A DNA stretch of 64,000 nucleotides from Haliotis cracherodii (taxonomy: Eukaryota), in NCBI RefSeq assembly GCF_022045235.1, contig NW_027266275.1, forward strand, positions 73,780,001 to 73,844,000, written 5' to 3'. The notes beneath the pieces are model-generated. The model made no database searches. It was not told where the DNA came from and saw only the letters and a list, made by a program, of their open reading frames with translations. Position numbers and translations under genes: made by a program. Below are positions 11,353 to 63,849 of this stretch, in pieces (the stretch's first letter is position 1; each line of letters opens with the position of its first letter).

Positions 11353-14194
11353 ATGGCAGAGACTAAAAACTTATCTGTGCCTCGGTCCCGCCACCAGTCG
11401 GCTGAGAGCAGCACGAGCTGTAACACGGAGCACTCCGACAGCTCCTCCTCGTCTGACAGCTCCGTGGAAAGTCTCCCACATGCTCCAGATGGTGGATGGG
11501 GCTGGGTGGTTGTGCTAGGGGCTTTCATAATCTCTGTTGTTTGTGATGGTTGTGCATTTTCCTTCGGAGTCTTGTATACAGAACTTTTAGACCACTTTGG
11601 CGAAAGTAAAAGTAAAACATCATGGGTTGGCTCTCTCTTTGTCGGGGTTCCACTGATTTGTGGACCTCTAGCCAGTGCACTGGTGACCAAATTTGGATGT
11701 CGGAAAATGACAATAGTTGCAGGATTTGTCACATCGGCTGGATTCATCCTCAGTTCGTTTGGAAACTCAATAGAGATGCTGTGCATAACATTTGGATTGG
11801 TTGCAGGAGTAGGTATGTCTTTCTGCTATGTCACTACGGTAGTTATAGTGGCTTTTTACTTTGAACAAAAGAGAGCTCTTGCAACAGGACTAGCTGTGTG
11901 TGGCTCAGGAATAGGAACGTTCATAATTGCTCCTTTGACGGAATATTTGATTGACGAATATGGGTGGAGAGGCACTGTGCTTATTCTGGGAGGCGTGCTC
12001 TTGAACATCATTGTTTGTGGAGCTTTGTTCCGACCACTGAAGTTTACCAGAGCAGAAAGAAGAAGGAGGGCACTGGAACAGTTCGACAAGTTATCCCGAA
12101 CCATTTCGCGCCAAAGCCTGCCCTCACGAGGCCGTAGTCGCTATAGCAGTGAAGTAAGTCACTCAGACAGCTCTGGAGAAGAGACCAAAGACAACCAAAT
12201 TGAACTTGAACAAATATGTCATTCTCAAGTGCAGCTCCCAACTTATGTCAATTCAGACCAAAAGACCGAAATTCCACAAGAGGTTCTTGCCAAATTTCGT
12301 AAAAATGGTTCAAACATCGAACAAACACTTCAAAGATTCTTCCATAGTCTGAATTTCACAGTGACTGATGAGCAGATAAAGACTGCAGAATTATTGACAG
12401 TAACAAGTGATGATCAGATTGTGTTCATGACACAAGAACCTCAGGAAAATAAACTCACCAATGGTGTGTCCAATACAAGCAATGATATTCACCCAAATCG
12501 CCACAAACAGCATCCTCATCGGGGACATGGGGTGTGGCAACGTAAGACACCCGTGAAACCCAGCAAGATGGTGCAGTACCTTCCCCTCTATAGGAAGGAC
12601 ATCTTCTATCGGGGAAACCTCCTTAAATTGTCAGGAACACACTACAGATCCAGCAGCTGCCCAGAGCTCTACATAAGTTCATTTGATGATGATGAAGATG
12701 AGGATGAGGATGATATATTTGAGATATGTCCTCTTTGCAAGATTCTCCGCTTGTCAAAACAAGTGAAGAGGGTGATGAAAACAATGTTTGATGTGAAGAT
12801 TCTCGGTAACCCTTTGTTTTTAGTATTTGCGATCTCCAACTTTATTCTTTATTTCTGGTATGATGTACCATATGTTTTCATGGCTGATAGGGCAACAGAG
12901 CTGGGTATATCAGAGGAGAAGGCATCGCTGATAATCTCCGTGATTGGCATAGTCAACACATTTGGCCAGGTGCTGTACGGATACCTGGGTGACAAGAACC
13001 TCAGCCTCAACCTGCTGTATGCTGTGTCCTGCATCCTGTCCGGGGTCAGTGTCCTGCTGGTGCCGCTGATGCAATCCTACTGGTACATGTGCACCCTAGC
13101 GGGCAGCTTTGGCTTCTTCATCGGCTCCAACTACGCCCTGACCACAGTCATGCTGGTGGAGTTCCTGGGGATAGATAAACTGACCAACGCCTGCGGATTG
13201 CTGATGATGATTCAGGGAATTGCCAATCTGATTGGACCCCCTGTTGCTGGTAAGTGGAACCTTTTATACTCAGCATATGAGGATTTTTCTTAATTCTTGT
13301 TGGGTGAAGCTGATTTCTGGTGCCCCTCTGTGATATGTCTGGAATGTTGCTAAAAGTCAAAGCGGCATAAAACCGTACTCACTCACTAATTCTTGTTGTT
13401 ATTTGCTTATGTTTAAACATAATTATTTGAAACCTAATGTGACAGTATTAAATGTGAATATATTTTAGCTCACCTGACGAAAAGTCACGCCACCTGCTTA
13501 TATGGTGTCCGTTTAGGGCAGCAGCATCTGTAAACATCTTCTCAGAACCCCCTGTACCAATGAAGCTGAAACTTCTCATATCCACCAATGATGACATAGC
13601 AACCATACTGAAAATTATATTTATGGCATTACTCAGTCATTTGTGTTAACATTAATGAAATGTGCACCTTTTTGTGAACTTGTTGTGTCATAGAATGTAA
13701 GAGAAATTCTTTCTCAAGATGACCCTAAGTGAACCATGCCTCCCTGTCTTGTTCAAACCTGTATTTTTGGGGACAATTTCTTTTTCTCGATAAAATCTCA
13801 TCCCCTGCCAGAATATCAAATAGAATATGGTTGTTCCCTTAGTAGATTTAAATTGTCTATGGATGGTAATCAAAACTAATGTGTCTACCATATCTACAGA
13901 CAAGCAGAGAAAAATTGGTAAGGAGCTTTATGGATATGATGGCCACTGTTGTCTCCCACAGGTTGGATGTATGATGAAACGAAGAGTTACGATGCCACGT
14001 TCTATGCTGCTGGTGCTTTCATCATCATAGCTGGAGCCATGCTGCTTGTCATCAAGTGTCTGAAGCGAGTGAGGAAGTGGCAGCGGATGCGTCACTACAA
14101 CCGAGATATTGTAGTGAAGGCATCCTCGAGTGGGAGGCGGGTGCACATACAGGAACCCAGCTGTGTGGTAGTGGAGATTGAGTCTGTAGTGTGA
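11353..14194 (+). CDS. SLC16 monocarboxylate transporter (MCT12/14-like), ~709 aa; coding exons 11353-13249 and 13962-14194
   Basis: PDGGWGWVVV MCT motif, YFEQKRALATGLAVCGSG, two 6-TM bundles with a long central loop; GTAAGT donor at 13250 and CAG acceptor at 13961 join in frame (PPVAG-WMYD). Confidence 0.92.
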
Positions 14195-23870: not shown

Positions 23871-26800
23871 TCACCTCGAGACGACGTCTGGAGCGTCAGT
23901 AGCAACATGTGGAGAGTGATGAGTGCAACGTCTTATCTTCACCTTTGACAGAAGTCCGTAGAGCACGCCACACCCAATCATACATCCTCCGGCGGCATAG
24001 AAGGTGTTGTCATAATTCCCCGACCCGTCATACAGCAACCCTGTGGAACACGCACACATATGAGTGTCAACACTCGGCCCTACATTGCCAGATACCCCGC
24101 ATCTTTTCAAGTTATAAGGCATATGCCTTAAATTGAAAGAGTCTGGTTTTACTCCGGGGTTGGGGAAACTACAAAGCCACACCATTTTCGTCCTGTGACA
24201 CCCATTTGTCCCTCAACATGATAACATTATAGGTTAATTACAGTTAAGTATTGATCTGCGTCCCTTATAGTCTAAGAAATGTCTATTACCATCAGCCAGG
24301 GTTGGTAGCCTAAATAATATAGAAGTGCATTTCCCTGATTGTGATAGTGTATCTGTCATAATTCTTGACTACATTCCTTACTAAAACATCTATAACATAT
24401 TTAGCAGTGTTAATTTCACCATTACGAAGAAGTTTATTTGCAATGAATTTTCAGTGGTTAATGGCTGTGTACCTCTTATGATGAGCATTGACTTAATATT
24501 ATTTCAAATTACAAAGAAATGACATTTCATAATTTTGAGTTGGCATTGGTCTCAGTAAATGGCTGGCTTCTTTAGTTATATTTCAATAGTTTCTGAAGTT
24601 CTTTTTTTCCCCCAGCGATTGATATTGGTATGGAGAACTTTGTTGTCCAGGGAGAGAACTCTGTCTAATTTTCCTTACGGGTTTCAAGTAGAGTCTAGAG
24701 TTATACTCGAGTAATAACATGGCCTTAGACACAAGGAAAGAATCCGGGCCTTCGGTTTATCGAGCGAATGCTTTAATCCCTAAGCTACCCCACCGCCCCA
24801 TATGAATTATAAAACTTACACTTGATCCTAGATATAAACGTTTCAACAACAAACATATGGAAGCCCTAGGTAGAATTTAGTGCGACTCAGTCGGTGCATT
24901 GTTGGACTGGTTTCACAACTACGGCTGCCGTAAATCCCACGCCGCAGCACTACTTTACATCAGCTGTAGTCTTAAAATAGCTTTGTGAACCGGGATCTGG
25001 TTTCCAAACGGTTAGTGAGTGAGTTGGGGTTAACGTCACTTAGAACAGATTTCGGCTATATCACGGCGTGTCATCTTGGAGTGTGAGGAAAGGCCAAAGC
25101 GATGCAAGTAGTATAACTTTGATAAACCTCACGAACACGTGTTTGTGTTGACACACCTAGAATCCCTGTCAGGGATATAACTTAGAAAAGTGAATTACGA
25201 CACCTTTTGTCAGCAGGGCGACATGGCGACGAGGGGTGACATGGAGGTGTTCGACGTTAACCAAAAAGAAAGCTGCTTTCTCGAGCTTTACGACAATAGT
25301 TTCAAACTGGCGACTTCCATGCCAGACTATACTTTGAAAATTTATTTTGACCAAATTCTCAATTCAAAATTCGAATCCTGAACAAAAGAACATTCTGGAA
25401 TGTCTCAATAGATGGCCGAGATTGTATCGCAGTACATTCCGCGAGCTTTGTCACGTCTTGTCCGTTGATGTTTATCTCATATTGAAGCGAGAGATTGAAG
25501 AAGATTTTGATGGGATCAGTCGTACAGCTCGTAAATGTCGTTCGGAATACACCGAGTTAACCTTTTCGAGGTTGCATGATTAGAAAACAAATTTTGACAG
25601 TAACTTTCCTGATCTGGTAAGCGACGCACTGATTGGTCGGATGACAGGTTGTTCTGACGTGATCCGGGTTATATATATTGTTTTATTCCTTTTTATTTCC
25701 AAAGGGAGGCATGGGAGAATGTACAAGGGTTGAAAGGTTTGGTTTGTATTAGTTTGTTTGTATGTAGTTTTACGCCACACTATTCCAGCTATATGACGGC
25801 GGTCTGTAAATAATCGAGTCTGGACCAGACAATCCAGTGGTTGACATCATGAGCATCGATCCAGCAATTGGGATACGATGACATGCACCAACCAAGTCAG
25901 CGAACCTGACCACCCGATCCCGTTAGTCGCCTCTTACGACTAGCATAGTCGCCTTTTACGGCAAGCATGGGTTGCTGACGACCTATTCTACCCCGGACCT
26001 TCACGAGTCGGGAGTTGAAAGGAGATTATTAATAAAGGAAATAGTTATGATGGGGGCAGACAATGTTCACATTCATTGATTTATCACACAACCGTATCGT
26101 TTACGTCCTTGCACAAGTAGTAGTGTCCTTGGATAACAGTCATGGTACACACATCAGTGTTACTGTTGTTTAGCGGGACAAGTGGGATACATAAAAGGAG
26201 ACAGCAAACTATATCAACATCTGTCTGGTTTAGGAGAGAAGCACCGAGTTCGCTAGGACCGATGCTCATGACCAGCCAGAGGTTGTTTCGTTCAGCTGTT
26301 TTCTTATCACACTTGCACACACTATGAATAAGAAGGTTAGAAAACTTCTCAGATCTTTATTTGGCGGTAAGGATAACTAAGATCTGATTTTAATGAGATG
26401 GACTCACTGAAAACGTATTAAAAAGTAAAAGACTATGAATATATCATTTGCTGATGTTTTCATCATAATTTCGTCTACCCAACACAAGATGCCAAGTGAT
26501 AAGTAAACCCCTCTTTATTCAAATAACTGTTTCCGCACCCAACATCCCAGAAAGGATTTCAGTGACACAAACATGAACTGATCCAACCCAGTACCTTGAG
26601 GTACTCATGATCACCAGACACCTACCTGCAATGGGTGGGCCTAGCAATTCCCCGAAGCCCTTCAGAGTTATGATGTAGCCATACGCCGAGCTGAGCCGCC
26701 CGGAGCCTAGGATATCCACCAGCATCACTAGATTCATGGAGTCTGCAGGCGCTGAGGACAACCCAAACACAGCTGCCAAAATTGCAAGTGGTGTGAACGT

Positions 26801-28306
26801 AGAGAATAGGGGCATAAGTGTCAGGGCTGTGCCAGAGAGAGCTGCAGTGACACAATACATGGCGGTCTTGTTAATGTTGCGGATATCCATTAGAGATCCA
26901 AAGAGGAGGCAGCCAACTAACTGCGAAGCGCCTATGATGGATAGGAGAAAGGAAGCGTTCTTCTTGTCCACGCCTTGTTCTATGGCCTTGTCAGAAAGGT
27001 ACACGTAGGGAATGCCGACCCAGAGGTTGAAGACAAAGACAGCAAACGTGTAGAGCAGATACTTAGGGTTTGTGAAAACATGAAGGCTCAAGTTTGAACA
27101 ACAGGCTTTCAAGACTGCCTTCAAATAGCTTCCATTCTTTATATCGAAGTGTTTCTCTTTGTCCGTGGTGACATCATTTTCATTGCAGTAGCTTTGAAGA
27201 ATAGAGGGTGAAATATGTTCCGTAGGATATGTGGTTTCGCCGACAAAATGTTCAAATTTTTCATGCGTAGGTATGGTAGAAATACTATCTTGATTTTTCA
27301 CTCGGGTTCTCTCCGTTCTCGGTGGTGAAGCTGGCTGAAATAGGGCACCACATACACAGACATTCAGCATGATAGCAGACAGAATCATCAACGTCCCTCT
27401 CCACCCATAGGTCACCAACAAGTTCTCAAACACTATGGGCATAAACACCGTCCCCATCCCTGCGCCACACTCCGCGATGCCAGACACCAGACCCAGCTTA
27501 CTGCTGAAATGATGATCGAGAATCACGGAACATGCTAGGTAAGGAAAAGAAGCTCCTATCCCGGCCAGACAGCCAAACGTCAGGTACATCAGACCCAGCG
27601 ACTGTACAAATACGCTAGCCAGTATTCCAAGTGCTGTGACGACTCCTCCAACCATGGCCGTAATCCGACATCCAAGTTTGATAGCGATGAGACTTGCCAC
27701 AGCTCCGCCGATAAGAGGAAGAGAGACAAACAGCGAACCAACTAATGCCACACTGCTTTTTGAAGCCCCGAAATATTTCCAAATGTCGGTGAAGAGTACA
27801 CCGAAGGCGTTGAAAGACCCCTCGAGTATGAAATGGGTGAAGAAAGATCCAATTACAATTAGATACTTCCAGTGAGGCCTGCATGTCTTAGTGAGTTTGG
27901 GGGTAGATCCATTACCATCACAGTCCCACGTTGCTGGTCGTGTTGTCTCCTCTACTGACAGTGTAGCTGGGGAAGAACGACCATTGGGTATGTCATCTGA
28001 AGGCGACTCCACCATGGTGATGTCTGTTGTTCCTAATGTAGACTCGGCTGTACACTCCTCTTCCTGGTCAGACAACTCAGTACTTTCTCGGAGATGTGAC
28101 TTCCCCAATGCAGTGGTCTTGATGTTCAATGTGAGCAATGTGTTGGTTCCATCTTGTTTTTCTTCAGCTGTTAACGAATCATCATTGAAAGGAGCTGGTG
28201 CCTTTTCTATGCCCTGGTCCCCCTTGTCCAGTTCACAGAGAGCCAGTGCTGCAGTGGGGACCTCGTTGTCCTGTCCCACTCGAGGCTGACCAGTGCCGTC
28301 CTCCAT
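23871..28306 (-). CDS. second SLC16 monocarboxylate transporter paralogue, ~616 aa; coding exons 28306-26626 and 24040-23871
   Basis: MFS/MCT TM pattern (FGVLFTDI, YGWRGTLMIL, LLGPPIAG); GTAGGT donor at 26625 and CAG acceptor at 24041 give in-frame PPIAG-LLYD; same intron position as the first MCT. Confidence 0.88.
25745..26010 (-). mobile_element. family B SINE-like repeat in the MCT intron
   Basis: reverse complement of the family B core. Confidence 0.8.
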
Positions 28307-51125: not shown

Positions 51126-51718
51126 TCTCACACTCACACACCATGGAGAGTGAGTGGATGTATTATGTCATATTTCCTAATTGGTACTAATTATTGTTTG
51201 TTATTGCAGTGAACATTGCCAGAACAACATCCCCAGAAATAGAAGGTGGATCATATGATACGGGTGATTCTGACTTCTTCACTCCGGATTTGGAGTTGAG
51301 TAACACTTGATCAATCTGTCAACACAAAGTTGTACTCCTGACAAAGGCATCCACTTGGCAAGGACATACCATTGGAGGTTGGGAACACCAAGCATGAAAA
51401 CTGTCCCTATACTTTGTGTTGGAGTGTCATTTGTTAACATTCCTTGCGGTCACATTCTTCATAATGGACAAGGATAATGAAACTGTATTGTTCACAGACA
51501 CGGCAATAATAACGACGGCGATAACTGGATTAGTCAACGCATTGGACATTATTGAAAACATCGTCATCATCTTCATCATTGCCAAGACGCCTGCCGTGAG
51601 ATGATTCTCTGGAGCTCTCATGGTAAACCATGCTGGAGCTGACGTCATTCAGGAAAGTATCATTCAGACTGTCATATTTTTGTTTGTTATTCGTCCTGGA
51701 ATGGTTCAATTTGACATA

Positions 51719-52239
51719 AGTAGTTGTGTACTGTAGTGTGGAACCACCTCAGGATTATGGAACCGCTCAGGATTATGGAACCAAGATGGCGGCACATCCT
51801 CTGTGACGTCACTTCCGGTCACGTGACCTGCGCAGTGCATGATGGGACTCTGCGCGTGCGCCTCCAAGATGGCGTCGCTTCCGTTTCCGGTGGCGTGCGC
51901 CTCCAAGAGGGCGTGGCTTCCGTGTCCGGTGGCGCGCGCCTCCAAGAGGGCGTCGCTTCCGTGTCCGGAGTCGCGCGCCTCCAAGAGGGGCGTCGCTTCC
52001 GTGTCCGGAGGCGCGCGCCTCCAAGAGGGTGGCGCTTCCGTGTCCGGTGGCGCGCGCCTCCAGGGGTGGCGGTGGTGGAGGGAGGGAGGGAGGGAGGGAG
52101 GGAGGGTGGTGGTGATGAAGGGAGGAAGGAAAGGAGGAAAGGAGGAGGAGACGGGTTCATGGTTTGGTTTGGAGGGTCGTCAAAGCAAAGGAGGAAAGTT
52201 GTCTTTCGGGAGAGATGGGTGGCCCTGAAAAGGGCCGTT
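51719..52239 (+). repeat. left TIR (521 bp) with ~6 internal 38-39-bp GC-rich repeats
   Basis: reverse complement of 62598-63118; mirror ORFs in the ORF track give identical translations. Confidence 0.95.
52201..52239 (-). terminator. histone-type 3' stem-loop and putative HDE ending the CCHC gene
   Basis: minus strand AACGGCCCTTTTCAGGGCCACCCA...CCGAAAGAC; stem-loop at 52221-52236, 133 nt after the stop. Confidence 0.8.
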
Positions 52240-52369
52240 GGAAAACAAACTGGAAACTGGAAACTGAAAACGACAGGAAACGTCAGGAACACTGGAACAC
52301 TGGAACACTGGAAAAACTGCAAACGATGGGACACTGGTAAAAAACAGTGGGGTAGCATGGTCCCATGCG

Positions 52370-52972
52370 TTAGTCACTTTGTTCAGATGATCTCTCTTCT
52401 TCATCCTCTACTTCCATCTCATCCTCGGACTGAAGGTGTCGTCGGCGCTTTGAAGCGTGCTTTCTTGAGAGGCTTCTGGCCCGTTTTCTTTTCTCTACAA
52501 GAGGTGTGATGTCCGCCCGGAGTTGTGCGAGGCATTCTTTTAGGTCGAGGACATCGACGTGCACGTCTTCGATGAGATGAACCACTTGTGTCACGGGTGT
52601 CACGGGTGTCACGGGTGCCACGGGTGTCGACGTGGACGGTGTTGCTGACGTTTTCTTTCGACTGGGTTCTGGGCAATCTGCAGCGAAATGACCCAGGGCT
52701 TGACAGTTGTAACAGTGGTCCAGGCGATGGGGAGTCTTCTTTCGACTGGGTTCTGGGCAATCTGCAGCGAAATGACCCATGGCTTCACAGTTGTAACAGG
52801 GACCCAGGTTCCGATTCTCCTGCTTCTCTTGACTGTTCATCTTCGGACAGACATAGTGACGGTGACCTTGAGTGCCACACTCGAGGCATGTCACTTCAGG
52901 GCAGTACAGGTAACTGTGACTGTCGGTCTGGCACTTCATACAACTGTATCGAGCTGGCATGATGGGTTTCAT
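52370..52972 (-). CDS. zinc-knuckle protein (4x CX2CX4HX4C), 200 aa, with basic NLS-like and acidic tail
   Basis: CMKCQTDSHSYLYC, CLECGTQGHRHYVC, CYNCEAMGHFAADC, CYNCQALGHFAADC; TATA cassette upstream. Confidence 0.85.
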   Translation of the reverse strand: MKPIMPARYSCMKCQTDSHSYLYCPEVTCLECGTQGHRHYVCPKMNSQEKQENRNLGPCYNCEAMGHFAADCPEPSRKKTPHRLDHCYNCQALGHFAADCPEPSRKKTSATPSTSTPVAPVTPVTPVTQVVHLIEDVHVDVLDLKECLAQLRADITPLVEKRKRARSLSRKHASKRRRHLQSEDEMEVEDEEERSSEQSD

Positions 52973-53019
52973 AGAATGCAGTGTGTGTGTGTGTGAGTGG
53001 CTTCGCTCTTGTTTTGTTT

Positions 53020-53285
53020 TTTTATAGGAGAGGTACTGACATCCTGCTTCCTGATTGGTTCCCCAGGCCGCGCCCCCGATTGGTTCGTTTCAGGGCCTGG
53101 TCTGCACCTCGGTTTTCCAAAACGGACCGACCCCTGTGTTTCTTTTCCATAGGAAATGGATTTTACCATGGGAGAGAAAGCACAACCCCGGTTCGACCAT
53201 TCAGAGTCCCGCATGACCCGAGCACGGTCTCTGATTGGTCGACAACCCAGGCTTCGGATTGGTCCAATTTCGATCCGGTTTTTTT
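53020..53285 (-). promoter_or_regulatory. promoter cassette copy 1 (multi-CCAAT + TATA) for the CCHC gene
   Basis: CCAATC x4 and CTATAAAA; homologous to the copies at 56050, 60679 and 61937. Confidence 0.75.
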
Positions 53286-53494
53286 TATCGGGGTGTGCAT
53301 TTCGATCCTGTTTTGTTTTTCTTCATCCTACAGACCACAGAACACGACTATGAGTTTTTAAAAAAAATTTAATCCCCTCGCTCACATGAACCAACACCAC
53401 AAAACAAAAAGTCACAGGATGAGGGGACCGTCCCTGTGACTTTTGTGAACACTGGGGGTATGAACGTCTGTACACTTTGAAAAAAGAAACGTTG

Positions 53495-54007
53495 TCACTT
53501 GGGGTGAACAAGACACTCGACTCTTCTCTTCCGTGCTTCTTGGGACACCAAACGTCTGTATTTTTCGTTCACTTCTCCATCAGGACAAAACACACACAAG
53601 TATTCGCAGGGCACTTTGGCGTGCTTCAGATGTTCTTTCCAGGGTTGGTCTGTGGCTTCCCATTGGCGGAGTGCCACACCGCAGCAATAACAGGTCACAC
53701 AGTCACCTTGTCCTGGATAGAAATAGCCAGCCATGGCCATGTCATACGGGGTCTGGGTCATCTGTTGAGGCCACGTTTTAAAAGATCTCAGACGTTCTTG
53801 AAATGAATCATAGTGAGGATGAGAAGGATGACACAGGGTGTAAGAAGGAAAAGGTCCCTCCAGAATGTCACTGAGTCGCCACGTGTCGTCCCTAAAGAGG
53901 GAACGTTTTCTCGCTTCTTGTTCTCTCGCCTTTTCAGACACCCACTCGGAATCGGTGACGACATCTCGGGAGGATGACATGACATTCATAGAACGTCTTT
54001 GCTCCAT
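53495..54007 (-). CDS. single-BIR (IAP/survivin-like) protein, 170 aa
   Basis: RLRSFKTWP...AGYFY...VTCYCC...W...D.PWKEH...C BIR signature; CATAAAA and TCAGT upstream (54057, 54027). Confidence 0.88.
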   Translation of the reverse strand: MEQRRSMNVMSSSRDVVTDSEWVSEKAREQEARKRSLFRDDTWRLSDILEGPFPSYTLCHPSHPHYDSFQERLRSFKTWPQQMTQTPYDMAMAGYFYPGQGDCVTCYCCGVALRQWEATDQPWKEHLKHAKVPCEYLCVFCPDGEVNEKYRRLVSQEARKRRVECLVHPK

Positions 54008-54755
54008 GATGACGGGGACTTCACTGAAAGAAGGTCTGAGGGTTCGCCTGCTTTTATGAAACTCTCCACCCTACTCCCTTCCACCTCCTCCTTCACCTCC
54101 TCCACCTCATCACGTGACGTCATCCTGTGTTTGGGTTGACGGACACACGGCATGATTCGTGACACGATCCATGACATGACATGGTACACGGGGAGGGGGT
54201 GTGGGGATCGATGCGTACTGGAATGACCGACACCAGGCAGCTGATCTTTCAAGCATGGCCTTTCTCTTTTATCTATTTTTATTTTAATTTTACACTTGGG
54301 TGTGCACTGACATGACAGATGCACAGACAGACAGACAGACAGACAGACGGACAGACAGACAACGTCAACGACATCTCAACTCAACCTCTACCCTCGGTTC
54401 GGCACTCTATTGGAGTTGAGATCAATCAAGACACAAAGAGTCAGTTCAATCAATCACTGTTTAATCATGAAAAAACCCAATCACAACCAGATACAATGGA
54501 AATACGAAAAGTCAATGGAGGAGGGAGTGCTTTGCATGTCCCTACAACAACCACAACCACAACAACAACAACAATAACGCGACAACGTTTTCCTCTTCCA
54601 TCTTCAAGCCCATAAGAGGTGGTCCTCCCTCAACCCTGTGAGAGGTCCATCCGTTCAACACGTACAGTCTATGGTCTCCCTGAAACAGACATGACACATC
54701 ACTTGATCACGGTTGCAGCTTACGTGTTGACAAGTTCTTCGAGTGAAGAGGAGGA

Positions 54756-55846
54756 TCACCATAAGATGTGATCCTCAGCAGATGTGATAGGCATGTCATC
54801 ATGTGTCATTATGCGGTCATAGGTCAACATACTACAAGTACAGTCTATGAGCTCCAGACCACAGGTATGACACATCACTTGCCCGCTGTTGCAACTGATG
54901 TATCTTAACATGTTGTTGTGTCGGCAAATACGACATCCGCGTTGTAGGGGAGTGAGTTGAGCTTCTCCATAAGGATCCAGGTCAACGTCGTTGTCATCCA
55001 CATCATCATCATCATCTTCATTATCGTCGCAAACCAGGGGCGTACCTGAGGAGTAGACATGAACATCTTCCGGGGATGTTGGTGACCAAGAAGCCTCAAG
55101 CAGGGGGAGCGTGTCCAGATCCATGGAAGGGAGAGTGGCCAGCTTGAGCGCTTCATGATCCTCACGGTCACCCGTCGCCATCGTCACAGCAGGGGCATTC
55201 GGTGAATAGGTGGGCTCCCGAGGGGTTTGTTCCCACCACTGTTCTAGCACGCCCTGGACTGAACTGACATCAGGGGTCCTGTCAATCATAGGACAGAGTC
55301 CATTTATCATAGGAATAGGTCATGAATATGAATCACATCAAGAATGACTGAGACAAAGAAGAGCAAGGGTACTTACAGCTGTTCTTGAGGAGAGATCTTC
55401 AGAGATAATTTCTTCCGTGATCGTCTTTTTGCAGGCGTTGCAGGTTTCAAAAAGGATGTCCCCATCGTTTCGATGTCTGTGGTCGCTGCAGCCGTTGTTG
55501 CTGTTGCTGCTGTGGTGGTGGTGGTGGTGGTGGGTGTTGCTGCTGCTGTGGGGATCACAATGACTGTGGGCTTGCTTGTCTTTTTCTTCTGGATCTTCTT
55601 TATCGTCTTCTTCGATGTGCCTTTCTCGGGTTCAGTCAGCTTCCTCATCTTTGAACGTATCTGTTCGCACATCAGGTTGTCGCCCTTCGCACGTAACTTG
55701 GCGTACGCGTCGTCGGTCTTCATCTTTAAACACAGCAAGTCGTACACTTCACCCCACAGTTCAGCAGTCATGTCACCGTTCCCATCTCCACTGCTTCCTT
55801 GGCCACTCATGTCGCTTCGCGTCTTGTCATTCAATCGTTTCGACAT
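54756..55846 (-). CDS. spliced ~330-aa E1A-like (Oncoid-like) protein; exons 55846-55377 and 55278-54756
   Basis: GTAAGT donor at 55376 and TTGACAG acceptor at 55279 join two ORFs in frame; LVCDD plus acidic run plus GCRIC...MCHTC zinc finger. Confidence 0.6.
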
Positions 55847-56049
55847 GATGTTGTCCGGATGTTCTGTTCGTTGTTGTTTCTTTTCAAGTCTTCACGGAGG
55901 TGCGTCAACACTTGATGGTACTCTCTCCAAACACGTGTTTCTTCCAGATAAAACGCCAACAACCAACACAACGTGAGGAACATCAATCAGAGGGGGACGA
56001 TGTGGTTGCTTGGTCCGTTCAGTGAAAAGTGATGACCGGAGAGCATCGG

Positions 56050-56290
56050 GCGTATTAAAAGCCACGGAGGTCCTGCTTTCTGATTGGTCCGTTCCGGTGT
56101 CTGGTCTGAGTCTCCATTTTTCCAAACTGGACCGACCCTTGTGTTTCTTTTCCATAGGGTTAGGCTTGTAGCGTGAGAGAGAAAGCACAACCTCGGTTCG
56201 ACCAATCAGAGCCCACCATGGCTCGAGCACGGTCTCTGATTGGTCGACAACCCAGGCTTCGGATTGGTCCGATTTCGATCCGTTTTTTTT
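56050..56290 (-). promoter_or_regulatory. promoter cassette copy 2, upstream of the E1A-like gene
   Basis: GGATCGAAATCGGACCAATCCGAAGCCTGGGTTGTCGACCAATCAG core; CCAAT x4. Confidence 0.7.
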
Positions 56291-56349
56291 TTTTTTTTCT
56301 GTAAGGGGTTCATGTCGATTCAGTTTCGATCCCTTGTCATGCAAAAAAA

Positions 56350-59300
56350 TTATAGAAAGTCGTCTCTGTACCCAAAGGGGAGCGTGTCTACAGGTAGGCC
56401 TGTGGTGTCGTCGTAGACGACACGTCGCTTGTCGTACACGGTACGATAGTCTTTTCGGGTGGGACGGGTCACGAGTGCGTTTTCGTGCCGAGGTCCTTTT
56501 CGAATGATCTGATGAGGGTAATCCAAACTGATTTTCTCTTCCTCCTCTTTCCCAGACCGTTGTCCCAGTATCAGTCCTTTCATGGTGTCAAAGTTGAGAT
56601 GGCGTTGGTTTCGGTAATTCAAAGTGAACCCTCGCACTTTGCAGGTCGTGCGCGTTCCATCGGGCCTGGGGTTCATTAACTCATAGCCATAGTTTTTGGG
56701 ACCTCCTGACACAAACGTCTTGATGGTGTTTCCGTCCAGTTCATCCGTAAACTCACCCAACGAATGACCCAGCTCTGGATTCGCGTCGTGGGGTCGATGA
56801 ATGTAAATGACGCTGTCCGTGTCAAAGTACAAGACCCTGCGGCCCACCAGGGCAAGGGTCTCGTACAGCTTGAGACGTGCTTGGGCGGTGACCCAAGCAG
56901 CGATGGCGACATTGAAATGAGAATGAGGGGTTTGGAATTCTTTCCGCTGGGTATAGGTCACATCCACCATGTGTTCGTTGACAACGGTCACATCCTCGAT
57001 GGTATTGCGGTCATCCCTCCACAAGGCAAAGTACTGTGCAGGATCGTTCATATAGACGTTCTGACTGTAGTCTACCCGTTGCCCAAACTTGCCCCAGAGC
57101 GAATTCAGTTGCATCTTGGCAATCGTGCGGCGTCCTGGATTTTTTTCGATGCGGTCCTTGTCCAACCGAATGCCTTCTTTGTCGTAGATCTCCTGGATGT
57201 AAGCGTCGTGATCCGTACATCCTTCGGGGTATCCGCTGGCTTCGAGCTTCTCCTTGAAATGTCGATCGATGTAAGTGTCAAAGAGTCCCACTTGCTGGGT
57301 GTCGGGGTCATGCTGTGCAAAGGTGTCAAAATGCCAAACGTCGTAGATCTGAAGCACCCGGTAGTCATACTTCTTCACGGCTTCCTGGAGTTCTACGGTG
57401 GCGTACGTCCCCACCCATGACCTCTCTTCGTCCGTGTGCTCGCAGGGGGAGTCTGACCGGGTATCGGCACACGTACGGCACAAAGGACAGAGCAGTTTGC
57501 CACCCGATCTGTAAGGCAGTAGCGGATGGTAGAGTCGTTTCGGGGGTAGGACACGGCATTGGATCAGGCCTTTCAGTTCAAACAACGTGTCCACAGGGGG
57601 TTGATGGAGAAGGGTCGGGTGTCCCGTGGGAAACGCTCCGATCTTACAAATGTAGGGATAAAGGGAACAAATATCAATGTACTTGATGGTTTCACCTTCT
57701 TGGGCTTCGTAGCATAATCGCGTGGCATTGGTGCGTCCTCCATAGAAGGTGTCGCGAGGGTTGAGCGGCCCGGGGACGTGACGACAGTGGGGTCCCTGCA
57801 AGAAAGCACGTAGAGCGGAGTCCTCCCGTTGCATTTTCGTAAATTCGTGCTCCCACAGGGCGACGACCCGTTTCACCTCAGGGTGTTGACTCAAGAGACT
57901 CAAGCGGTAGTGGGTGTCGGTGTAACGGGCTCCCAACGACGTGCCCAGGACGGGATGCGGTTCTCCACGTCGGGTCTTGTGACAGGTCTTGCACCCATGC
58001 CAGAAACAGCCCAGGAATTCGTAGACGGTGCCTGTCGCTGGATCGTACCCATCCACGCTGTACCGATGTTGGCCCTCTCCACAGGTGAACTCTTTTTCAC
58101 CGCCATTCCTGGCGTGCTGGAGGTGCAGATGGGGGTCCCTTTCCATCAGAGAGTGGAGCCAGTGCATACAGGCCTGGGAATAGTTTCTCTTGGGTTGGTA
58201 GCCTTGAGGTGGAAGAATGGCGATGGTATTGGGTTTCAGGTCGTGTTTTCGGAAGGATTTCATGGTGAACGCAGCAGCTGTCATCACTTCCACAAAGGGA
58301 TCCATGCCCACCGAGTGGATGGCGTTCTGTCGGAAGTCGGCGCATCCCCGTCTCAAAATGTCCACATCGCTCTGGCAGTAAGCTAAAAGTTCTTCTTGTA
58401 AGTCGAACAAGGCTCCTTCTTGCACTTTTTGGGTATGCCACTGGAGGAAGGCTGAGCGTTCCGCGGGAGACATGCCATCGGGATCGTACGTGACGGCTGG
58501 TGGATAGGGACCTCTGTAGGTCTGATTGACTCTCGTATTGAAAAAGTGTGGAAAGTACCCTTTCTTCGTTTCTTTCAGCCCAAAGCTCTTGGGAAAGGCT
58601 TTCAGGGGGTAAGGGATGAAATTTAAGCTGTCTTCGAAACACAGTCGTCCCAGGGTCATCTGCAAAATGTGTTGGCCATGTCGAATCTTGGTGGGGAGTG
58701 TCACCAGGAGGGGGGACAGGCCCTTCAGGATTAAGTGTAAATCATAGGATCGTGCATTGTGGGCCATCACATAAATGCGATCCTCCTTCGGGACTGTATG
58801 GCAGGAGGTGTTCTTGTTCTTTGGCTTCTTTGTATTCTCCACTTCCATGGCCTCTTCCACTTCCTCCACCTCTTCCGTCTCCTCCGCCTCCTGCTGGGGT
58901 GATGCATGCCGTTGACGTTTGGTAGCGTCCTTTCTTGAGGGGGTGCCATCCCGTTTTCTTTTTTTCCCCAGGGGGGCTGTTGTCCCCTTGCGTGTGCTGC
59001 CCTCCTCTTCCTCCGGGTTGGGCTTCTTCTTGGGTATTTCACACAACGTGGTCAACCACACACACACATCATGTCGCGTGGTGGGCCCTCGAAACACGAT
59101 CTCACGGCTGGGACCATACCCTTCTTCTCTCCATGGGCAGTGTTCGAACAAGTTCTTACTCACTTCACTGATGCATCGTCCACATCCTAGTTGCACCACG
59201 CACAAATTTGGAATGTGCTCCCCCGTGTCTTGCATGCATTCAAAATCGTAGAAGACGTATTGGACGTCGTCTCGTACGTGATGTTGTTCCTCTTCCCCCT

Positions 59301-60597
59301 CCTTCTCCGTTTCCTCTCCCCCCTCCCCCTCCTCCTCCCCCTCCTCGTTTTCTTCACGGAGAGACGTCATGTAACAGCGATGGTCTGGGGTCATGGGTTC
59401 TCGGCACACCAAGCAGGGATGTTCTTCGTCGAAGCACTCGTGGTGAACCATGGGGGTCTCCAAGACGCGGACCAGCTGAAAACAGTTCGGGCACCTGTGA
59501 ATCGATTGACAGGCGCTGGGTTTTCCCTCTGACGGTGACTGGAGATGTCGGGTGTAACACGTTGGATTGGGGAACCAACCTTGACATGTCAAGCAAGGGA
59601 TCCCGAGCTCTTCCTGGGGTCCGCAATAGCTAGAGTAGAAGCAGCGGTGACAGCGGTATTCCTTGGTGCAGGGATGTTTTTCGGGATGGTCGTAACGTTT
59701 GTCGCAGCGTTCGCAGTAATGGTCAGACCCGTAAAAAGCGGACATGGAAGTGATGACATCGTAGTGCTGATCATGATGGTATAGATGCAGCACCCTGGCG
59801 TGAGGTGGAGCCTCATCACACTTGTACAACAGTCTCTGACCCACCTCTTGACTGTAGACTTTCAGTTGATAATGCAGGAGGGTCAAGGCCCGTCCCACGC
59901 GTGCGAGGTCGTCCAGCCCCCGACAGGGACCTTCAGGCAGGCCAAGGCGTCGAAACAAGGCCCGTGCCCGTAGGCCTTGAACGTCGACGCGATTCGTTCT
60001 CGTCAGTCTCACTAACTGGGCTTTCCATGCTGGGGTCAGAGGATGGGGTTTGTGGGCATAATGCTGTGCCACCACCAGGGCCCGTGCCAAACAGGATTGA
60101 TCTTCGTTCTTGATCCGTACGATGCACCTTTTGCGTGTTAAAAAAGCTTCGAGTCCAATCACGTTTTTCACCCGGGGAGCACCACTGCCCGATCCTAACC
60201 TGTCGGGATCTGCGACGTGTACTAAAGTCACATCCATGGTGGCATCGATGTTCAGGTCTTTGTTGGACTGTTGGACTTTTTCCACGGCCTGCAAAATATC
60301 TGGCCCATGGAGATCTTCAAAACGTCGAAAGGGAATCCGTATGGGGGTGTTCAAAGCGGGATGATCGATACCTAGACCAATACGATCTCCCTTCTGACCT
60401 GACGTCTGTTCATAAAAGTCATCGATCACCCTGTCAAATAAAGCTGGCAGTTCCAGGGGGACGCGTTCCGGTGGTACGGTGTCCAAGTAGTCTGGGTTGA
60501 AAGTCAAACGATAGGTATGATTAGCAGTTCTTAACCGTCTGGAGCGGGTGGTATCTTTCCTCTCCAAACGATAGGGCGTACTTTGGTTGCTCGTCAT
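56350..60597 (-). CDS. polB: protein-primed family B DNA polymerase, 1415 aa, with N-terminal TP/OTU-like region and inserted Vsr-like nuclease motif
   Basis: Exo I YDFEC, Exo II HNARSYD, Exo III YCQSDV, YGGRT, DICSLYP, KMQLNSLWGKFGQ, YFDTDS, GPKNY; uninterrupted ORF. Confidence 0.95.
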   Translation of the reverse strand: MTSNQSTPYRLERKDTTRSRRLRTANHTYRLTFNPDYLDTVPPERVPLELPALFDRVIDDFYEQTSGQKGDRIGLGIDHPALNTPIRIPFRRFEDLHGPDILQAVEKVQQSNKDLNIDATMDVTLVHVADPDRLGSGSGAPRVKNVIGLEAFLTRKRCIVRIKNEDQSCLARALVVAQHYAHKPHPLTPAWKAQLVRLTRTNRVDVQGLRARALFRRLGLPEGPCRGLDDLARVGRALTLLHYQLKVYSQEVGQRLLYKCDEAPPHARVLHLYHHDQHYDVITSMSAFYGSDHYCERCDKRYDHPEKHPCTKEYRCHRCFYSSYCGPQEELGIPCLTCQGWFPNPTCYTRHLQSPSEGKPSACQSIHRCPNCFQLVRVLETPMVHHECFDEEHPCLVCREPMTPDHRCYMTSLREENEEGEEEGEGGEETEKEGEEEQHHVRDDVQYVFYDFECMQDTGEHIPNLCVVQLGCGRCISEVSKNLFEHCPWREEGYGPSREIVFRGPTTRHDVCVWLTTLCEIPKKKPNPEEEEGSTRKGTTAPLGKKRKRDGTPSRKDATKRQRHASPQQEAEETEEVEEVEEAMEVENTKKPKNKNTSCHTVPKEDRIYVMAHNARSYDLHLILKGLSPLLVTLPTKIRHGQHILQMTLGRLCFEDSLNFIPYPLKAFPKSFGLKETKKGYFPHFFNTRVNQTYRGPYPPAVTYDPDGMSPAERSAFLQWHTQKVQEGALFDLQEELLAYCQSDVDILRRGCADFRQNAIHSVGMDPFVEVMTAAAFTMKSFRKHDLKPNTIAILPPQGYQPKRNYSQACMHWLHSLMERDPHLHLQHARNGGEKEFTCGEGQHRYSVDGYDPATGTVYEFLGCFWHGCKTCHKTRRGEPHPVLGTSLGARYTDTHYRLSLLSQHPEVKRVVALWEHEFTKMQREDSALRAFLQGPHCRHVPGPLNPRDTFYGGRTNATRLCYEAQEGETIKYIDICSLYPYICKIGAFPTGHPTLLHQPPVDTLFELKGLIQCRVLPPKRLYHPLLPYRSGGKLLCPLCRTCADTRSDSPCEHTDEERSWVGTYATVELQEAVKKYDYRVLQIYDVWHFDTFAQHDPDTQQVGLFDTYIDRHFKEKLEASGYPEGCTDHDAYIQEIYDKEGIRLDKDRIEKNPGRRTIAKMQLNSLWGKFGQRVDYSQNVYMNDPAQYFALWRDDRNTIEDVTVVNEHMVDVTYTQRKEFQTPHSHFNVAIAAWVTAQARLKLYETLALVGRRVLYFDTDSVIYIHRPHDANPELGHSLGEFTDELDGNTIKTFVSGGPKNYGYELMNPRPDGTRTTCKVRGFTLNYRNQRHLNFDTMKGLILGQRSGKEEEEKISLDYPHQIIRKGPRHENALVTRPTRKDYRTVYDKRRVVYDDTTGLPVDTLPFGYRDDFL

Positions 60598-60678
60598 GAT
60601 AGCGATGTGTGTCTGATGAACGCCTGTACTCTAAGAGGGTCTGAACGTCTGATGGATGGACAACCCTTCCCCAAAACA

Positions 60679-60980
60679 GGATCGAAATCGGACCAATCCG
60701 AAGCCTGGATTGTCGACCAATCAGAAGACAGCCTCGACCAATCAGAACACAGCACCCGACCCGAGTTGTGCTTTCTCTCCCATGGTAAAATCCATTTCCT
60801 ATGGAAAAGAAACACAGGGGTCGGGTCGTTTTGGAAAACCGAGGTGCAGGCCAGGCCCCGAAACGAACCAATCGGTGCGTTGCGTTTTGGACCAACCAGG
60901 AAGCAACCCATTTCGATCCGGTTCTTCCCCCATAAAACAAGAGTGGATTCGAATGGGTCAGTGTCACTTGTAAAATTGAT
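60679..60980 (+). promoter_or_regulatory. promoter cassette copy 3, between divergent polB and BIR genes
   Basis: CCAAT x4, CATAAAA at 60931, TCAGT initiator at 60958. Confidence 0.75.
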
Positions 60981-60995
60981 GTGATAAAATCAAGA

Positions 60996-61454
60996 ATGGC
61001 TGAAACAAAGAAGAGTGGTACGACGACGACGACGCGTGGCGAAGATGTGGGAATGGAGGGTACAGATACTCGTGGATGTTGGAGTAAGAGTCATGCCGAG
61101 GAGGCGGTGTCACTGCTCAGTCAAACGCCATCGCACTATTATCTGCGCTTTGAAAGAAGGCTCGCTTCGTTTGAGACGTGGCCCACGCAAATGTATCAGA
61201 CTGCTGAAGAGATGGCTCATGCGGGCTTTGTCTACACTCAGGGTGCCGATGGTGTGTGCTGTTTCCAATGTGGTGTGCGGCTGAGACAATGGGCACCCCA
61301 CGACAATCCTTGGGCGGCACATCACAAGTGGTCCCCAGACTGCGATTACCTCAAGCTAACCGGGCTGGTGAAACACCAGAAGCAACTACAACTACACTAT
61401 CTCTGCGAAGAGAAACAGAGGTACACGAATGACGTAGCAGAGCCGGCTGCCTAG
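60996..61454 (+). CDS. second single-BIR (IAP-like) protein, ~152 aa
   Basis: RRLASFETWP...AGFVY...VCCFQC...W...DNPWAAH...PDC; first ATG after the initiator is at 60996. Confidence 0.88.
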   Translation: MAETKKSGTTTTTRGEDVGMEGTDTRGCWSKSHAEEAVSLLSQTPSHYYLRFERRLASFETWPTQMYQTAEEMAHAGFVYTQGADGVCCFQCGVRLRQWAPHDNPWAAHHKWSPDCDYLKLTGLVKHQKQLQLHYLCEEKQRYTNDVAEPAA

Positions 61455-61514
61455 GAGGACGACGTTTCCCGTGTCCTGCGTTCCCGTTCAAGTTCCCGTT
61501 CAAGTTCCTGTTCA

Positions 61515-61556
61515 TACGGCCCTTTTCAGGGCCACCCATCTCACCCAAAAGACAAC
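61515..61556 (+). terminator. histone-type 3' stem-loop and putative HDE ending BIR gene 2
   Basis: ACGGCCCTTTTCAGGGCCACCCA...CCAAAAGAC; stem-loop at 61518-61533, 63 nt after the stop. Confidence 0.8.
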
Positions 61557-61936
61557 TTTCTACCTTTGCTTTGCCAACCCCAACCCCAATTTGAAAACAC
61601 ACACACACACACACACACAGGGCACGACGTTTGCATGGCAACACACAAAGTACATGACGTTCACATCGTGACACGAAGTCCATGACGTGTGCAAACTTAA
61701 CGTCACGTAGGTGTATCGATCTTTCTCTATTCATCTCAATACGACACTACTCAATACACACACACACACAGGACACCACGTTTTGCCTGACATTCCGATT
61801 GGCATGGGAGTGACACACACGTACATCACGTAGGCATTCCCACGTTCATGTCTACCGATGAAGGTCCACCTTCCTTTAGCATTCAGACGACCGTCTACCT
61901 CAAAAAAATACCTAGGCTACCCAAGAAGAAAAAAAA

Positions 61937-62240
61937 CCGGATCGAAATCGGACCAATCCGAAGCCTGGGTTGTCGACCAATCAGAAGCGGCGCTCGGACC
62001 ATGGCGGGCTCTGATTGGCCGAACCGGGGTTGTGCTTTCTCTCCCATGGTAAAATCCATTTCCAACGGAAAAGAAACACAGGGGTCGGTCCGTTTTGGAA
62101 AACCGAGGTGCTGACCAGGCCCCGGAACGAACCAATCGGAGCTGCGGCCTGGCGAACCAACCAGGAGGGAGGATGTCAGTACCTCTCCTATAAAACAACA
62201 GTGGATTCGAGTGGTTCAGTGTCACTTGTAAAATTGATTT
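61937..62240 (+). promoter_or_regulatory. promoter cassette copy 4
   Basis: CCAAT/ATTGG x4, TATAAAA at 62189, TCAGT at 62216. Confidence 0.78.
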
Positions 62241-62257
62241 AAAAAGAAAGCATCATC

Positions 62258-62590
62258 ATGAGCAACAGCAACAACAACAACAGCAACAACATCAAGTCTG
62301 AAAACTGGGATTTAGAAATCGCCACAGTGAAACAACCTGTGCCCCTGTGGAAAGAAGCATCACCACCACCACCATGGTCTCCAGCATGGCAATGCGACAG
62401 ATGCCAAGGGGGCCTGCCTGTGTACGCCCTTGGTACAAGGGCACGGGATGGGACTTTCGAATGTGTGTACTGCGGCACTGTGCTGAAGGACACCTACGCG
62501 CGTCGGTTAACGCACACCGGTAGGTGTCCTGTCAGACGTCAAATGAAAGTTCACCCGTGCCTTTGCACCATGGCGTGCACATGCATGTAA
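62258..62590 (+). CDS. small Cys-rich zinc-ribbon protein, 110 aa
   Basis: CDRC-x19-CVYC and a C-terminal H/C cluster; bracketed by a promoter cassette and a stem-loop. Confidence 0.65.
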   Translation: MSNSNNNNSNNIKSENWDLEIATVKQPVPLWKEASPPPPWSPAWQCDRCQGGLPVYALGTRARDGTFECVYCGTVLKDTYARRLTHTGRCPVRRQMKVHPCLCTMACTCM

Positions 62591-62597
62591 ATATCAA

Positions 62598-62637
62598 AAC
62601 GGCCCTTTTCAGGGCCACCCATCTCTCCCGAAAGACA
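62598..62637 (+). terminator. histone-type 3' stem-loop and putative HDE ending the Zn-ribbon gene
   Basis: AAAACGGCCCTTTTCAGGGCCACCCA...CCGAAAGAC; stem-loop at 62601-62616, 10 nt after TAA. Confidence 0.8.
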
Positions 62638-63118
62638 ACTTTCCTCCTTTGCTTTGACGACCCTCCAAACCAAACCATGAACCCGTCTCCTCCTCCTTTC
62701 CTCCTTTCCTTCCTCCCTTCATCACCACCACCCTCCCTCCCTCCCTCCCTCCCTCCCTCCACCACCGCCACCCCTGGAGGCGCGCGCCACCGGACACGGA
62801 AGCGCCACCCTCTTGGAGGCGCGCGCCTCCGGACACGGAAGCGACGCCCCTCTTGGAGGCGCGCGACTCCGGACACGGAAGCGACGCCCTCTTGGAGGCG
62901 CGCGCCACCGGACACGGAAGCCACGCCCTCTTGGAGGCGCACGCCACCGGAAACGGAAGCGACGCCATCTTGGAGGCGCACGCGCAGAGTCCCATCATGC
63001 ACTGCGCAGGTCACGTGACCGGAAGTGACGTCACAGAGGATGTGCCGCCATCTTGGTTCCATAATCCTGAGCGGTTCCATAATCCTGAGGTGGTTCCACA
63101 CTACAGTACACAACTACT
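62598..63118 (-). repeat. right TIR (521 bp)
   Basis: inverted copy of 51719-52239. Confidence 0.95.
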
Positions 63119-63849
63119 GACATACACCTTCGACTTGCCCTACCTAGTATCAGTGGCGTGGTCTCTCACAGCGTAAGTGCCCTTTCAGTAAACCTGTACC
63201 TGGCTATATGCAGACAGCAGCAGTATAAGCGCTTAGTGATATGGAAACGGGTCTTTGCCTTCATGGCTTGTTCCTGGACCATCAACATTGCGATCGGCAG
63301 CCTGTACCATGTTGTGCCGTCAGTTTACACAGCTGACCTCAAGTCACGTTCAGATATCCTGTACATGGATATAACGCCCTCCAACTGTTGGTTCTATCTT
63401 CTGCTGGTTTTCAACATACTGCTCATCGCAAATTTCACAGCAGGGTCTTGCTACCTGTGAATTCGTTCTTTTATGAAATGTCCTACCATGTCCACCATAG
63501 GTCCTCACAACATGAATAAGCTGCAGCTTTCTCAGATGATCCCCATCATGACCATCATCTACCTCCTCACCTTCATCCCCATCTATATCATCATCTCCGC
63601 CAAGGTTCAGATACATGGTGTCAAGGCAGTTTTCTGGGTTGTTAACTCTTCCTAGTACGTCCTCAAGATGTTTCTTTACTTCAAGTTGTACAGACCTTTC
63701 AGGGAGACGGCGAGGGCTATTTGCTGCCACTCCTGTCAGAACCGTGTAGGTCCAACACAATAGTAACAAGGTGGCACTGTCCAAACTACTGGGAACAAGT
63801 GAGCTGACAGCCATTTTGAAACACAGTTAAGTCTAGTACATAGCGGAAT

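Follow-up and report, generated by a model that had tools for sequence, protein, structure and literature searches.

A 64,000-nucleotide stretch of the Haliotis cracherodii genome (contig NW_027266275.1, positions 73,780,001 to 73,844,000, forward strand; hereafter the window) carries a CCAAT/TATA promoter cassette in four copies, all of them inside an 11.4-kb Maverick/Polinton transposon at window positions 51719-63118. Sequence comparison suggests that the cassette is likely a promoter module of this element and that the front of copies 3 and 4 was likely captured from a host histone H3 gene. Young relatives of the element fall into two families, A (that of the window element) and its partner B, with different genes. 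We give a probability of about two in three to the reading that the cassette is an H3-derived promoter module of a Maverick whose young copies occur as two halves, with mutual supply in trans. The four copies are:

53020..53276, minus strand: cassette copy 1, with four forward CCAAT boxes and TATAAAA, without an H3-type leader (alignment, motif counts)
56050..56281, minus strand: cassette copy 2, without a canonical TATA (alignment, motif counts)
60679..60995, plus strand: cassette copy 3, with CATAAAA and an H3-type leader at 60954-60974, 18/21 to host H3 (motif counts, H3 comparison)
61939..62257, plus strand: cassette copy 4, with TATAAAA and an H3-type leader at 62212-62232, 19/21 to host H3 (motif counts, H3 comparison)

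A first-pass annotation of the window had reported these copies, and we find them where it placed them, the head of copy 4 lying at 61939 and not at 61937. The cassette heads (GGATCGAAAT) stand at 53276(-), 56281(-), 60679(+) and 61939(+). When the four are aligned with their flanks, 173 of 524 columns are invariant, and ungapped pairs of cassettes are 86-95% identical over 117-272 nt. Copies 1 to 4 hold 4/1, 3/1, 4/0 and 3/1 CCAAT boxes in forward/reverse orientation, with one extra CCAAC variant in each of copies 3 and 4. TATAAAA lies at +251 in copies 1 and 4, CATAAAA lies at +253 in copy 3, and copy 2 has neither; in copies 3 and 4 a TCAGT initiator begins 27 nt downstream of the TATA start, so that the motif positions bear out the arrangement first described. 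Every copy is also oriented towards an open reading frame (ORF), as had been claimed, with an ATG 304-435 nt from the head. There are 15 ACCAATC words in the 11.4-kb element and 10 in 51.7 kb of host flank, GATCGAAA occurs seven times in the element and not once in that flank, and a pattern for the cassette head has 436 matches genome-wide against 28 for the reversed control. Because of this motif density and this excess over the control, the cassette is not a product of chance.

The link to histone promoters, which the first-pass annotation had drawn from motif types, is stronger than proposed, since copies 3 and 4 match the host H3 promoter and leader in sequence. The leader that follows the TATA box agrees with the host H3 leader at 19 of 21 nt in copy 4 and 18 of 21 in copy 3 (0/300 shuffles), the sole significant result among 16 comparisons. 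A degenerate pattern for the 21-nt leader has 95 matches in 1.18 Gb and none for the control: six fall in the H3 array, one, of H3 type, in an old cassette (locus L152), and 88 are of element type, many of them, not all, tied to elements by position. In L152, an older copy that resembles the young cassettes at only 70%, 32 of 35 positions agree with the H3 5' untranslated region (UTR) through the ATG, with an exact run of 26 nt, a 3-nt insertion and then 6 nt through the ATG. Global alignment to H3 over 130-135 nt gave z-scores of 5.9 for copy 3, 6.5 for copy 4 and 11.2 for L152 (0/500 shuffles each), and H4 and H1 gave z of at most 0.5 against the same three. CCAAT pairs are spaced 23-25 nt apart in the element and 24 nt in H3, at a nearly equal distance from the initiator. 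A histone-like promoter with its leader is found in copies 3 and 4 and in L152, and not in copies 1 and 2; the distal part of the cassette (GGATCGAAA head, CCAAT dyad and 53-nt core) has no significant host match. The host core histones themselves (C37, C23 50.93-51.15 Mb) form a 4.25-kb tandem unit without H1, and H1 forms a separate 3.0-kb tandem array.

The genes that the cassettes precede, and the 3' ends of three of them, are:

52370..52972, minus strand: cargo 1, a 200-aa CCHC zinc-knuckle protein (PF00098, E 1e-12; 0/18 copies frameshifted)
52196..52241, minus strand: histone 3' stem-loop with purine-rich downstream element, 133 nt past the zinc-knuckle stop (RF00032, 36.4 bits)
54756..55846, minus strand: cargo 2, ORF 55373-55846 plus ORF 54756-55310, predicted to be a single spliced gene with intron 55279-55376 (no Pfam match)
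60996..61454, plus strand: cargo 3, BIR2, with a single BIR domain (PF00653, E 1e-22; 0/29 copies frameshifted)
61513..61558, plus strand: histone 3' stem-loop with downstream element, 63 nt past the BIR2 stop (RF00032, 34.6 bits)
62258..62590, plus strand: cargo 4, a 110-aa Cys-rich ORF of no known family (no Pfam match above cut-off; best Atlas score 0.86; 0/21 copies frameshifted)
62596..62641, plus strand: histone 3' stem-loop with downstream element, 10 nt past the cargo-4 stop, within the right inverted terminal repeat (RF00032, 35.6 bits)

That three of the four cassette genes end in histone stem-loops, as first noticed, is confirmed by the Rfam Histone3 model, above its gathering score in each case. 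The element-type stem-loop pattern has 355 matches genome-wide and none for the control. The downstream elements of the three stem-loops agree with the host histone downstream elements (HDEs) in position and are near-identical to them in sequence, and no AATAAA lies between stop and downstream element in these genes. The stem of the element, GGCCCT/AGGGCC, is identical to that of H1; the core-histone stem, GGTCCT/AGGACC, is set apart from it by a compensatory pair. A stem-loop with an HDE directs cleavage through SLBP and U7 and decay at the end of S phase (PMC6314538; cited, like all papers here, from excerpts). Because they end in histone stem-loops, these three cargo genes are likely switched on together with the histones, during DNA copying.

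Copy 2 stands apart. The two ORFs behind it are predicted to form one spliced and polyadenylated gene: GT/AG sites of the candidate intron are present in 17/17 copies at a length of 98 or 97, and poly(A)-type signals follow downstream, without a stem-loop. Contigs of four sequencing runs, three presumed to be RNA and a fourth of unknown kind, cover the element; among 15 of their 81 joints none fell at this intron, and as such contigs carry no information on starts, ends, strand or level, we did not use them as evidence. The earlier idea of modular units of promoter, cargo ORF and stem-loop largely holds, then, with the exception of copy 2, which has no TATA and a gene of this other predicted type. 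By the sequence evidence, the cassettes precede real genes. In six cargo ORFs every one of the 28 indel types preserves the reading frame, whereas 11 of 22 do so in two control frames; the ratio of nonsynonymous to synonymous change (dN/dS), taken over shared changes, is mixed across the cargo ORFs (0.3-2.5).

The element that holds the cassettes works like, and descends from, a Maverick. Its boundaries and polymerase are:

51713..51718: left target-site duplication (TSD) GACATA, 6 bp (sequence)
51719..52239, plus strand: left inverted terminal repeat (ITR), starting AGTAGT and containing 39-bp tandem repeats and the hairpin of the left stem-loop (521 nt, 100% to the right ITR)
56350..60597, minus strand: protein-primed DNA polymerase B (pPolB), 1415 aa, its ATG 82 nt behind the head of cassette 3 (PF03175, E 1e-33)
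62598..63118, minus strand: right ITR (521 nt, 100% complementary to the left)
63119..63124: right TSD GACATA, 6 bp (sequence)

A 6-bp TSD and AGT-repeat ends are hallmarks of Mavericks/Polintons (the polintoviruses and adintoviruses), which the element further resembles in its long ITRs and its pPolB. It encodes this polymerase, two BIR proteins, the zinc-knuckle protein and ORFs of no family; with family B proteins as queries, no integrase, capsid, ATPase or protease gene was found in it. Among 20 family A elements that were read, collinearity with the window holds for 17, two others carry deletions and one a rearrangement; the 6-bp TSD is present in 17 of 19 further copies, and polB frames exceed 1,300 aa in 12 of 20 stretches. 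No relatives of the polymerase were found among the viral contigs searched.

By following isolated stem-loops we reached family B, of 10.3 kb. It has the ITR of A (at 89-91%) and its left stem-loop, and also the front of cassette 1, placed here before a different 86-aa ORF. Its genes include an A32-like ATPase (Pox_A32, E 2e-6), an rve integrase with a chromodomain and a weak adenain-like protease (Peptidase_C5, E 0.04); its major capsid protein (MCP) scores 0.98 in Atlas to clusters in which 14-30% of members carry DJR-like_dom and has no sequence match in the PDB. From motifs and position we label further products as penton and core protein. In integrase, ATPase, double-jelly-roll capsid protein and protease, B resembles a Maverick/Polinton. 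All ten ORFs are kept at 97-100% and nearly full length in 5 of the 7 B copies read; of the other two, one lacks pVII and the MCP and one is more diverged. TSDs are clean in five of the seven, one has an extra terminal triplet and one is cut by the stretch edge. No polB lies between the ITRs of any of the seven, and none of the ten B core ORFs occurs in the window or in 49 young A loci, apart from a shared zinc-knuckle start. Non-autonomous Polintons are a known kind, and A, which carries pPolB without integrase, ATPase, MCP or protease, is not by itself an autonomous Polinton, because the integrase and the other core genes are in B only; A and B together hold the full Maverick gene set.

Linkage of the core genes agrees with the split. 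Among 68 MCP and 134 polB places (split matches merged, MCP families below 44% dropped), 0 of 51 young polB genes (at least 95%) have an MCP within 25 kb, and 0 of 10 young MCP genes have a polB within that distance; these counts cover the best 142 of 350 polB candidates and the best 131 of 301 MCP candidates, a limit that weighs against our reading. Five older polB-MCP pairs are linked, two of which belong to a sister family. In the decayed relics L148/149 and L150 the genes of A and B occur together, interrupted by stop codons and frameshifts. We also built a tree from 28 A and 6 B termini (three ends missed by the pattern left out), on which the A/B label needs 6 changes against a mean of 5.7 after shuffling; at least 4 changes are forced by strong branches, and two sets of identical termini span A and B. 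Because the termini are intermixed in this way, the two halves draw on one pool of ends, and they show the shared termini and complementary essential genes of a multipartite genome. Two derivatives were also seen: L100 is palindromic, with a B-type terminal unit at both ends, and L101 is a 2.3-kb miniature (ITR-ATPase-BIR-stem-loop-ITR) with a 6-bp TSD.

The cassette is not one uniform block. The claim of four related copies stands, yet they are patchworks, with segment identities of 31-100%, and the leader is common to copies 3 and 4 alone. The first 46 alignment columns are 96-100% alike among the window cassettes; copies 1 and 3 agree at 100% in columns 93-145 and at 40% in columns 47-92, and copies 1 and 4 at 87% in columns 201-260. 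Two private changes in the window's copy 4 make copy-4 segments elsewhere look closer to copy 1. The first-pass annotation had further suggested that units could swap cargo by recombination, and here one element speaks directly: in L046 a second copy of the element's own cassette-4 unit stands in place of the whole left arm (1163 columns with 3 mismatches and one gap), with the junction in an A-tract immediately ahead of the cassette head. As its TSD is intact, this recombinant arose before integration. Related elements with other ORFs behind the cassette, which had been named as a check, also exist: L149 has a full cassette with TATA oriented forward into polB, and the 86-aa ORF lies behind the cassette in 6 of the 7 B copies read. 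L142 has the copy-4 unit at its left end. Across older and partner loci, 30 of 50 cassette-like matches precede a recognised element gene on the same strand. A second pair of modules swaps cargo as well, as BIR1 uses the TATA, leader, first codons (common with B ORF2) and 3' hairpin that bracket the structural genes of family B. We did not count joints from cassette to cassette in contigs of sequencing runs, which may be assembly artefacts. The core dyad (TTTCTCTCCCATGG ... CTATGGAAAAGAAA) was considered as a hairpin or recombination site and rejected (fold z +0.5; the mapped junction lies at the head instead).

In the mechanism we propose, the H3-like front and the stem-loops would make the cargo genes act like replication-dependent histone genes, in S phase and without poly(A) tails. 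Recombination within the linear genome has duplicated and re-homogenised the cassette, as the mosaic copies and the integrated recombinant L046 show. Protein-primed replication yields displaced single strands, and as the proposed route copies 1 and 2, inverted relative to copies 3 and 4, would pair in such strands as the ITRs do. A would be the polymerase half, and B the half that brings integrase, ATPase, capsid and protease; judged by their gene content and by the intermixing of their termini, each would supply in trans what the other needs. A fuller version, in which an active Maverick is now a two-segment integrating virus whose accessory genes have captured H3 promoters and 3' ends of histone type, undergo SLBP/U7 processing and are limited to S phase, and whose repeated promoter serves as a recombination joint, is tentative, and we rate it a little short of an even chance.

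The main rival explanation is that A and B are independent non-autonomous derivatives, mobilised by a full-length master missing from the assembly or by another Maverick family, which would leave the cassette reading unchanged. Such a master would account for the old decayed copies that hold both halves and for the many deletion derivatives, down to L101 with ATPase and BIR only; a single assembly was at hand, and there is a sister family that looks intact and has every core gene in a single element (L147, C4 10.27-10.29 Mb), without the cassette and with polB at 54% and MCP at 49-53%. Pure parasites, however, are not expected to keep their genes, as A keeps long polB frames and most B copies all ten ORFs. 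The two gene sets are exactly complementary, the sister-family termini differ and its ITR has no match to A, and 0 of 61 young core-gene places are linked, so that we regard a missing master as unlikely without dismissing it. Slightly less probable in our view is that the histone likeness arose by convergent mimicry, that is by selection for the same factor sites and initiator, and not by capture of H3 DNA. The match is indeed limited to short motifs and the leader, with differing spacers, the distal two thirds of the cassette lack a host match, and the stem equals that of H1 and not that of the core histones. Yet the exact 26-nt run and the 6 nt through the ATG in L152 exceed the needs of a binding site, this older copy matches better than the young ones, the spacing is colinear across about 125 nt, and those matches to the leader pattern that were checked all lie in elements or in the H3 array.

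The four copies might also be by-products of ITR expansion and gene conversion, with one or two working promoters and no co-regulated set. L046 shows wholesale copying of terminal units, copy 2 lacks TATA and leader, and old copies contain tandem and orphan cassettes (20 of 50 matches have no recognised gene within 700 nt, a count partly due to the B 86-aa ORF missing as a valid query). We think this improbable, as 17 of 20 young elements retain a cassette at each of the four positions, a frame-protected ORF follows each copy, and the motif columns are conserved (29/300 variable against 132/724 elsewhere, p 5e-4, in 91 young cassette copies with two copy-1 cassettes filed under copy 3), although this last test was drawn after viewing the alignment and CpG mutability may contribute, which counts against us. 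That the cassette is a dispersed host repeat inserted regardless of genes, named at the outset as the refuting case, had some appeal when 625 candidates appeared genome-wide at first look; it is already refuted by the context of the matches read and has next to no probability left. All 30 top matches read (of 40 scored) fall in this element family, five of six loci with divergent heads are element relics and the sixth, without a cassette, fits the control rate, and orientation to the ORF is constant in the window.

Several further results weigh against the H3-derived, two-half reading. Copies 1 and 2 have no match to the H3 upstream region (z -0.7 and -2.4), and once the leader is removed copies 3 and 4 match H3 weakly (z 1.9 and 2.5; 26/500 and 11/500 shuffles), with copy 4 matching H2A too (z 3.0-3.2, 4/500, among 65 comparisons). 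The GGATCGAAA word, found in the H2A/H2B spacer too, lacks significance there (82-125 of 300 shuffles). A search for the host U7 RNA, for pairing with the HDE, did not find it; for shared changes, neither the zinc-knuckle ORF (2.5) nor ORF3 (0.9) has a low dN/dS; and L046 is the one clean recombinant among the 20 A elements read. The genome also holds unrelated and sister Mavericks, and as it is represented by one assembly, a full-length master is possible elsewhere in the species.

The suggestion that copy 3 is bidirectional and also drives polB stands at about even odds. The polB ATG lies just behind the cassette head, which read in reverse gives the TTTCGATCC word that is also found ahead of the BIR2 TATA. 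Against it, no reverse TATA was found, the polB upstream region has no histone-promoter match (z at most 2.2), and polB has its own forward cassette in an old copy.

Between cassettes 1 and 2 the window element carries three further features:

53303..53475, minus strand: hairpin/ATTAAA 3' end after BIR1, common to the 3' end of the family B structural block (84-89% to B copies; fold z -2.6)
53495..54007, minus strand: BIR1, with a single BIR domain, without cassette or stem-loop (PF00653)
54224..54284, minus strand: remnant of the ATPase upstream region, the ATPase ORF being absent (89% to B)

The ATPase ORF is present at the corresponding place in the older copy L142. In the ITRs (51719-52070 and 62770-63118) the 39-bp tandem repeats contain CAAGATGGCG and CGGAAG words, alongside GGTCACGTGACC and TGACGTCA palindromes, which we take to be YY1-, ETS-, E-box- and CRE-like. 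The element sits in a single-exon gene that has decayed, with stops in frame to the left and right of the insertion (51401-51718 and 63119-63760); the right part of this gene has a weak 7tm_1 match (E 0.004, below cut-off). Two long ORFs for MFS transporters (major facilitator superfamily) lie in the host flank, at 11353-13293 and 26519-28306.

Histone-type 3' ends were also seen beyond the cassette genes. Intronless-looking SET-domain ORFs of about 300 aa (L084:3889-4782 and L095:3892-4800; C56 40.23 Mb and C67 53.73 Mb), 78% alike over 1.7 kb and without a cassette, have a Histone3 stem-loop and downstream element directly 3' and may represent another family of non-histone genes that end as histone genes do. 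A serpin fragment (PF00079) ahead of an element-type stem-loop, upstream of an old cassette (L083/L126:3182-3517), may be a further captured cargo. In the sister Maverick a BIR gene (L147:9270-9727) is followed by a degenerate histone stem-loop (24.2 bits, below cut-off) and then AATAAA. Among viral contigs the stem-loop pattern was found in seven stretches, none above the Rfam cut-off; one, L158 (an IMG/VR contig of 2319 nt, small, Rep-encoding and CRESS-like), has a Histone3-like stem-loop at 1212-1258 (28.5 bits, below cut-off), about 85 nt past the stop of its second ORF.

Bidnaviruses are parvovirus-like and are not known to have an integrase or a double-jelly-roll capsid. The present elements recall them in having two segments with matching termini (PMC8502044) and pPolB on one, unlike them in that A and B both integrate with 6-bp TSDs. 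The yeast linear killer/helper plasmids pGKL1/pGKL2 offer another case of two linear DNAs with dependence between them (PMC13348850), unlike the mutual core-gene split suggested here in being cytoplasmic, capsid-less and non-integrating, with one-way dependence. Described Mavericks hold pPolB and integrase together and typically span 15-25 kb (PMC6431247, PMC5499653), unlike the young copies here, of 11.4 kb with polB only and 10.3 kb without polB; homologues of inhibitors of apoptosis (IAP) are known as adintovirus accessory genes (PMC8502044). With replication-dependent histone genes (PMC6314538) the units share the CCAAT/TATA promoter, short intronless genes, the 3' stem-loop with its purine-rich downstream element and, in copies 3 and 4, the H3-matching leader; unlike histone genes they encode BIR, zinc-knuckle and unknown proteins, in a mobile element outside the histone cluster, and their processing is predicted. 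In the literature searched, which covered the excerpted text of PMC8502044, PMC11071308, PMC6431247, PMC8097293 and PMC10748475, with subscription journals, Repbase and supplements outside its reach, we found no report of histone-type promoters or stem-loops in Mavericks, or of split Mavericks.

The stem-loop/U7 route is described for replication-dependent histone mRNAs. If our reading is true, an element that borrows both ends of histone genes shows a nuclear DNA parasite tying its genes to the host S phase, and its cargo genes would be natural non-histone substrates for that route. Pipelines that require all core genes in one 20-kb block, as the excerpted PMC10748475 does, would miss such elements. 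This genome, where young halves and old unsplit relics occur with termini in common, would make it possible to test how segmented dsDNA genomes originate.

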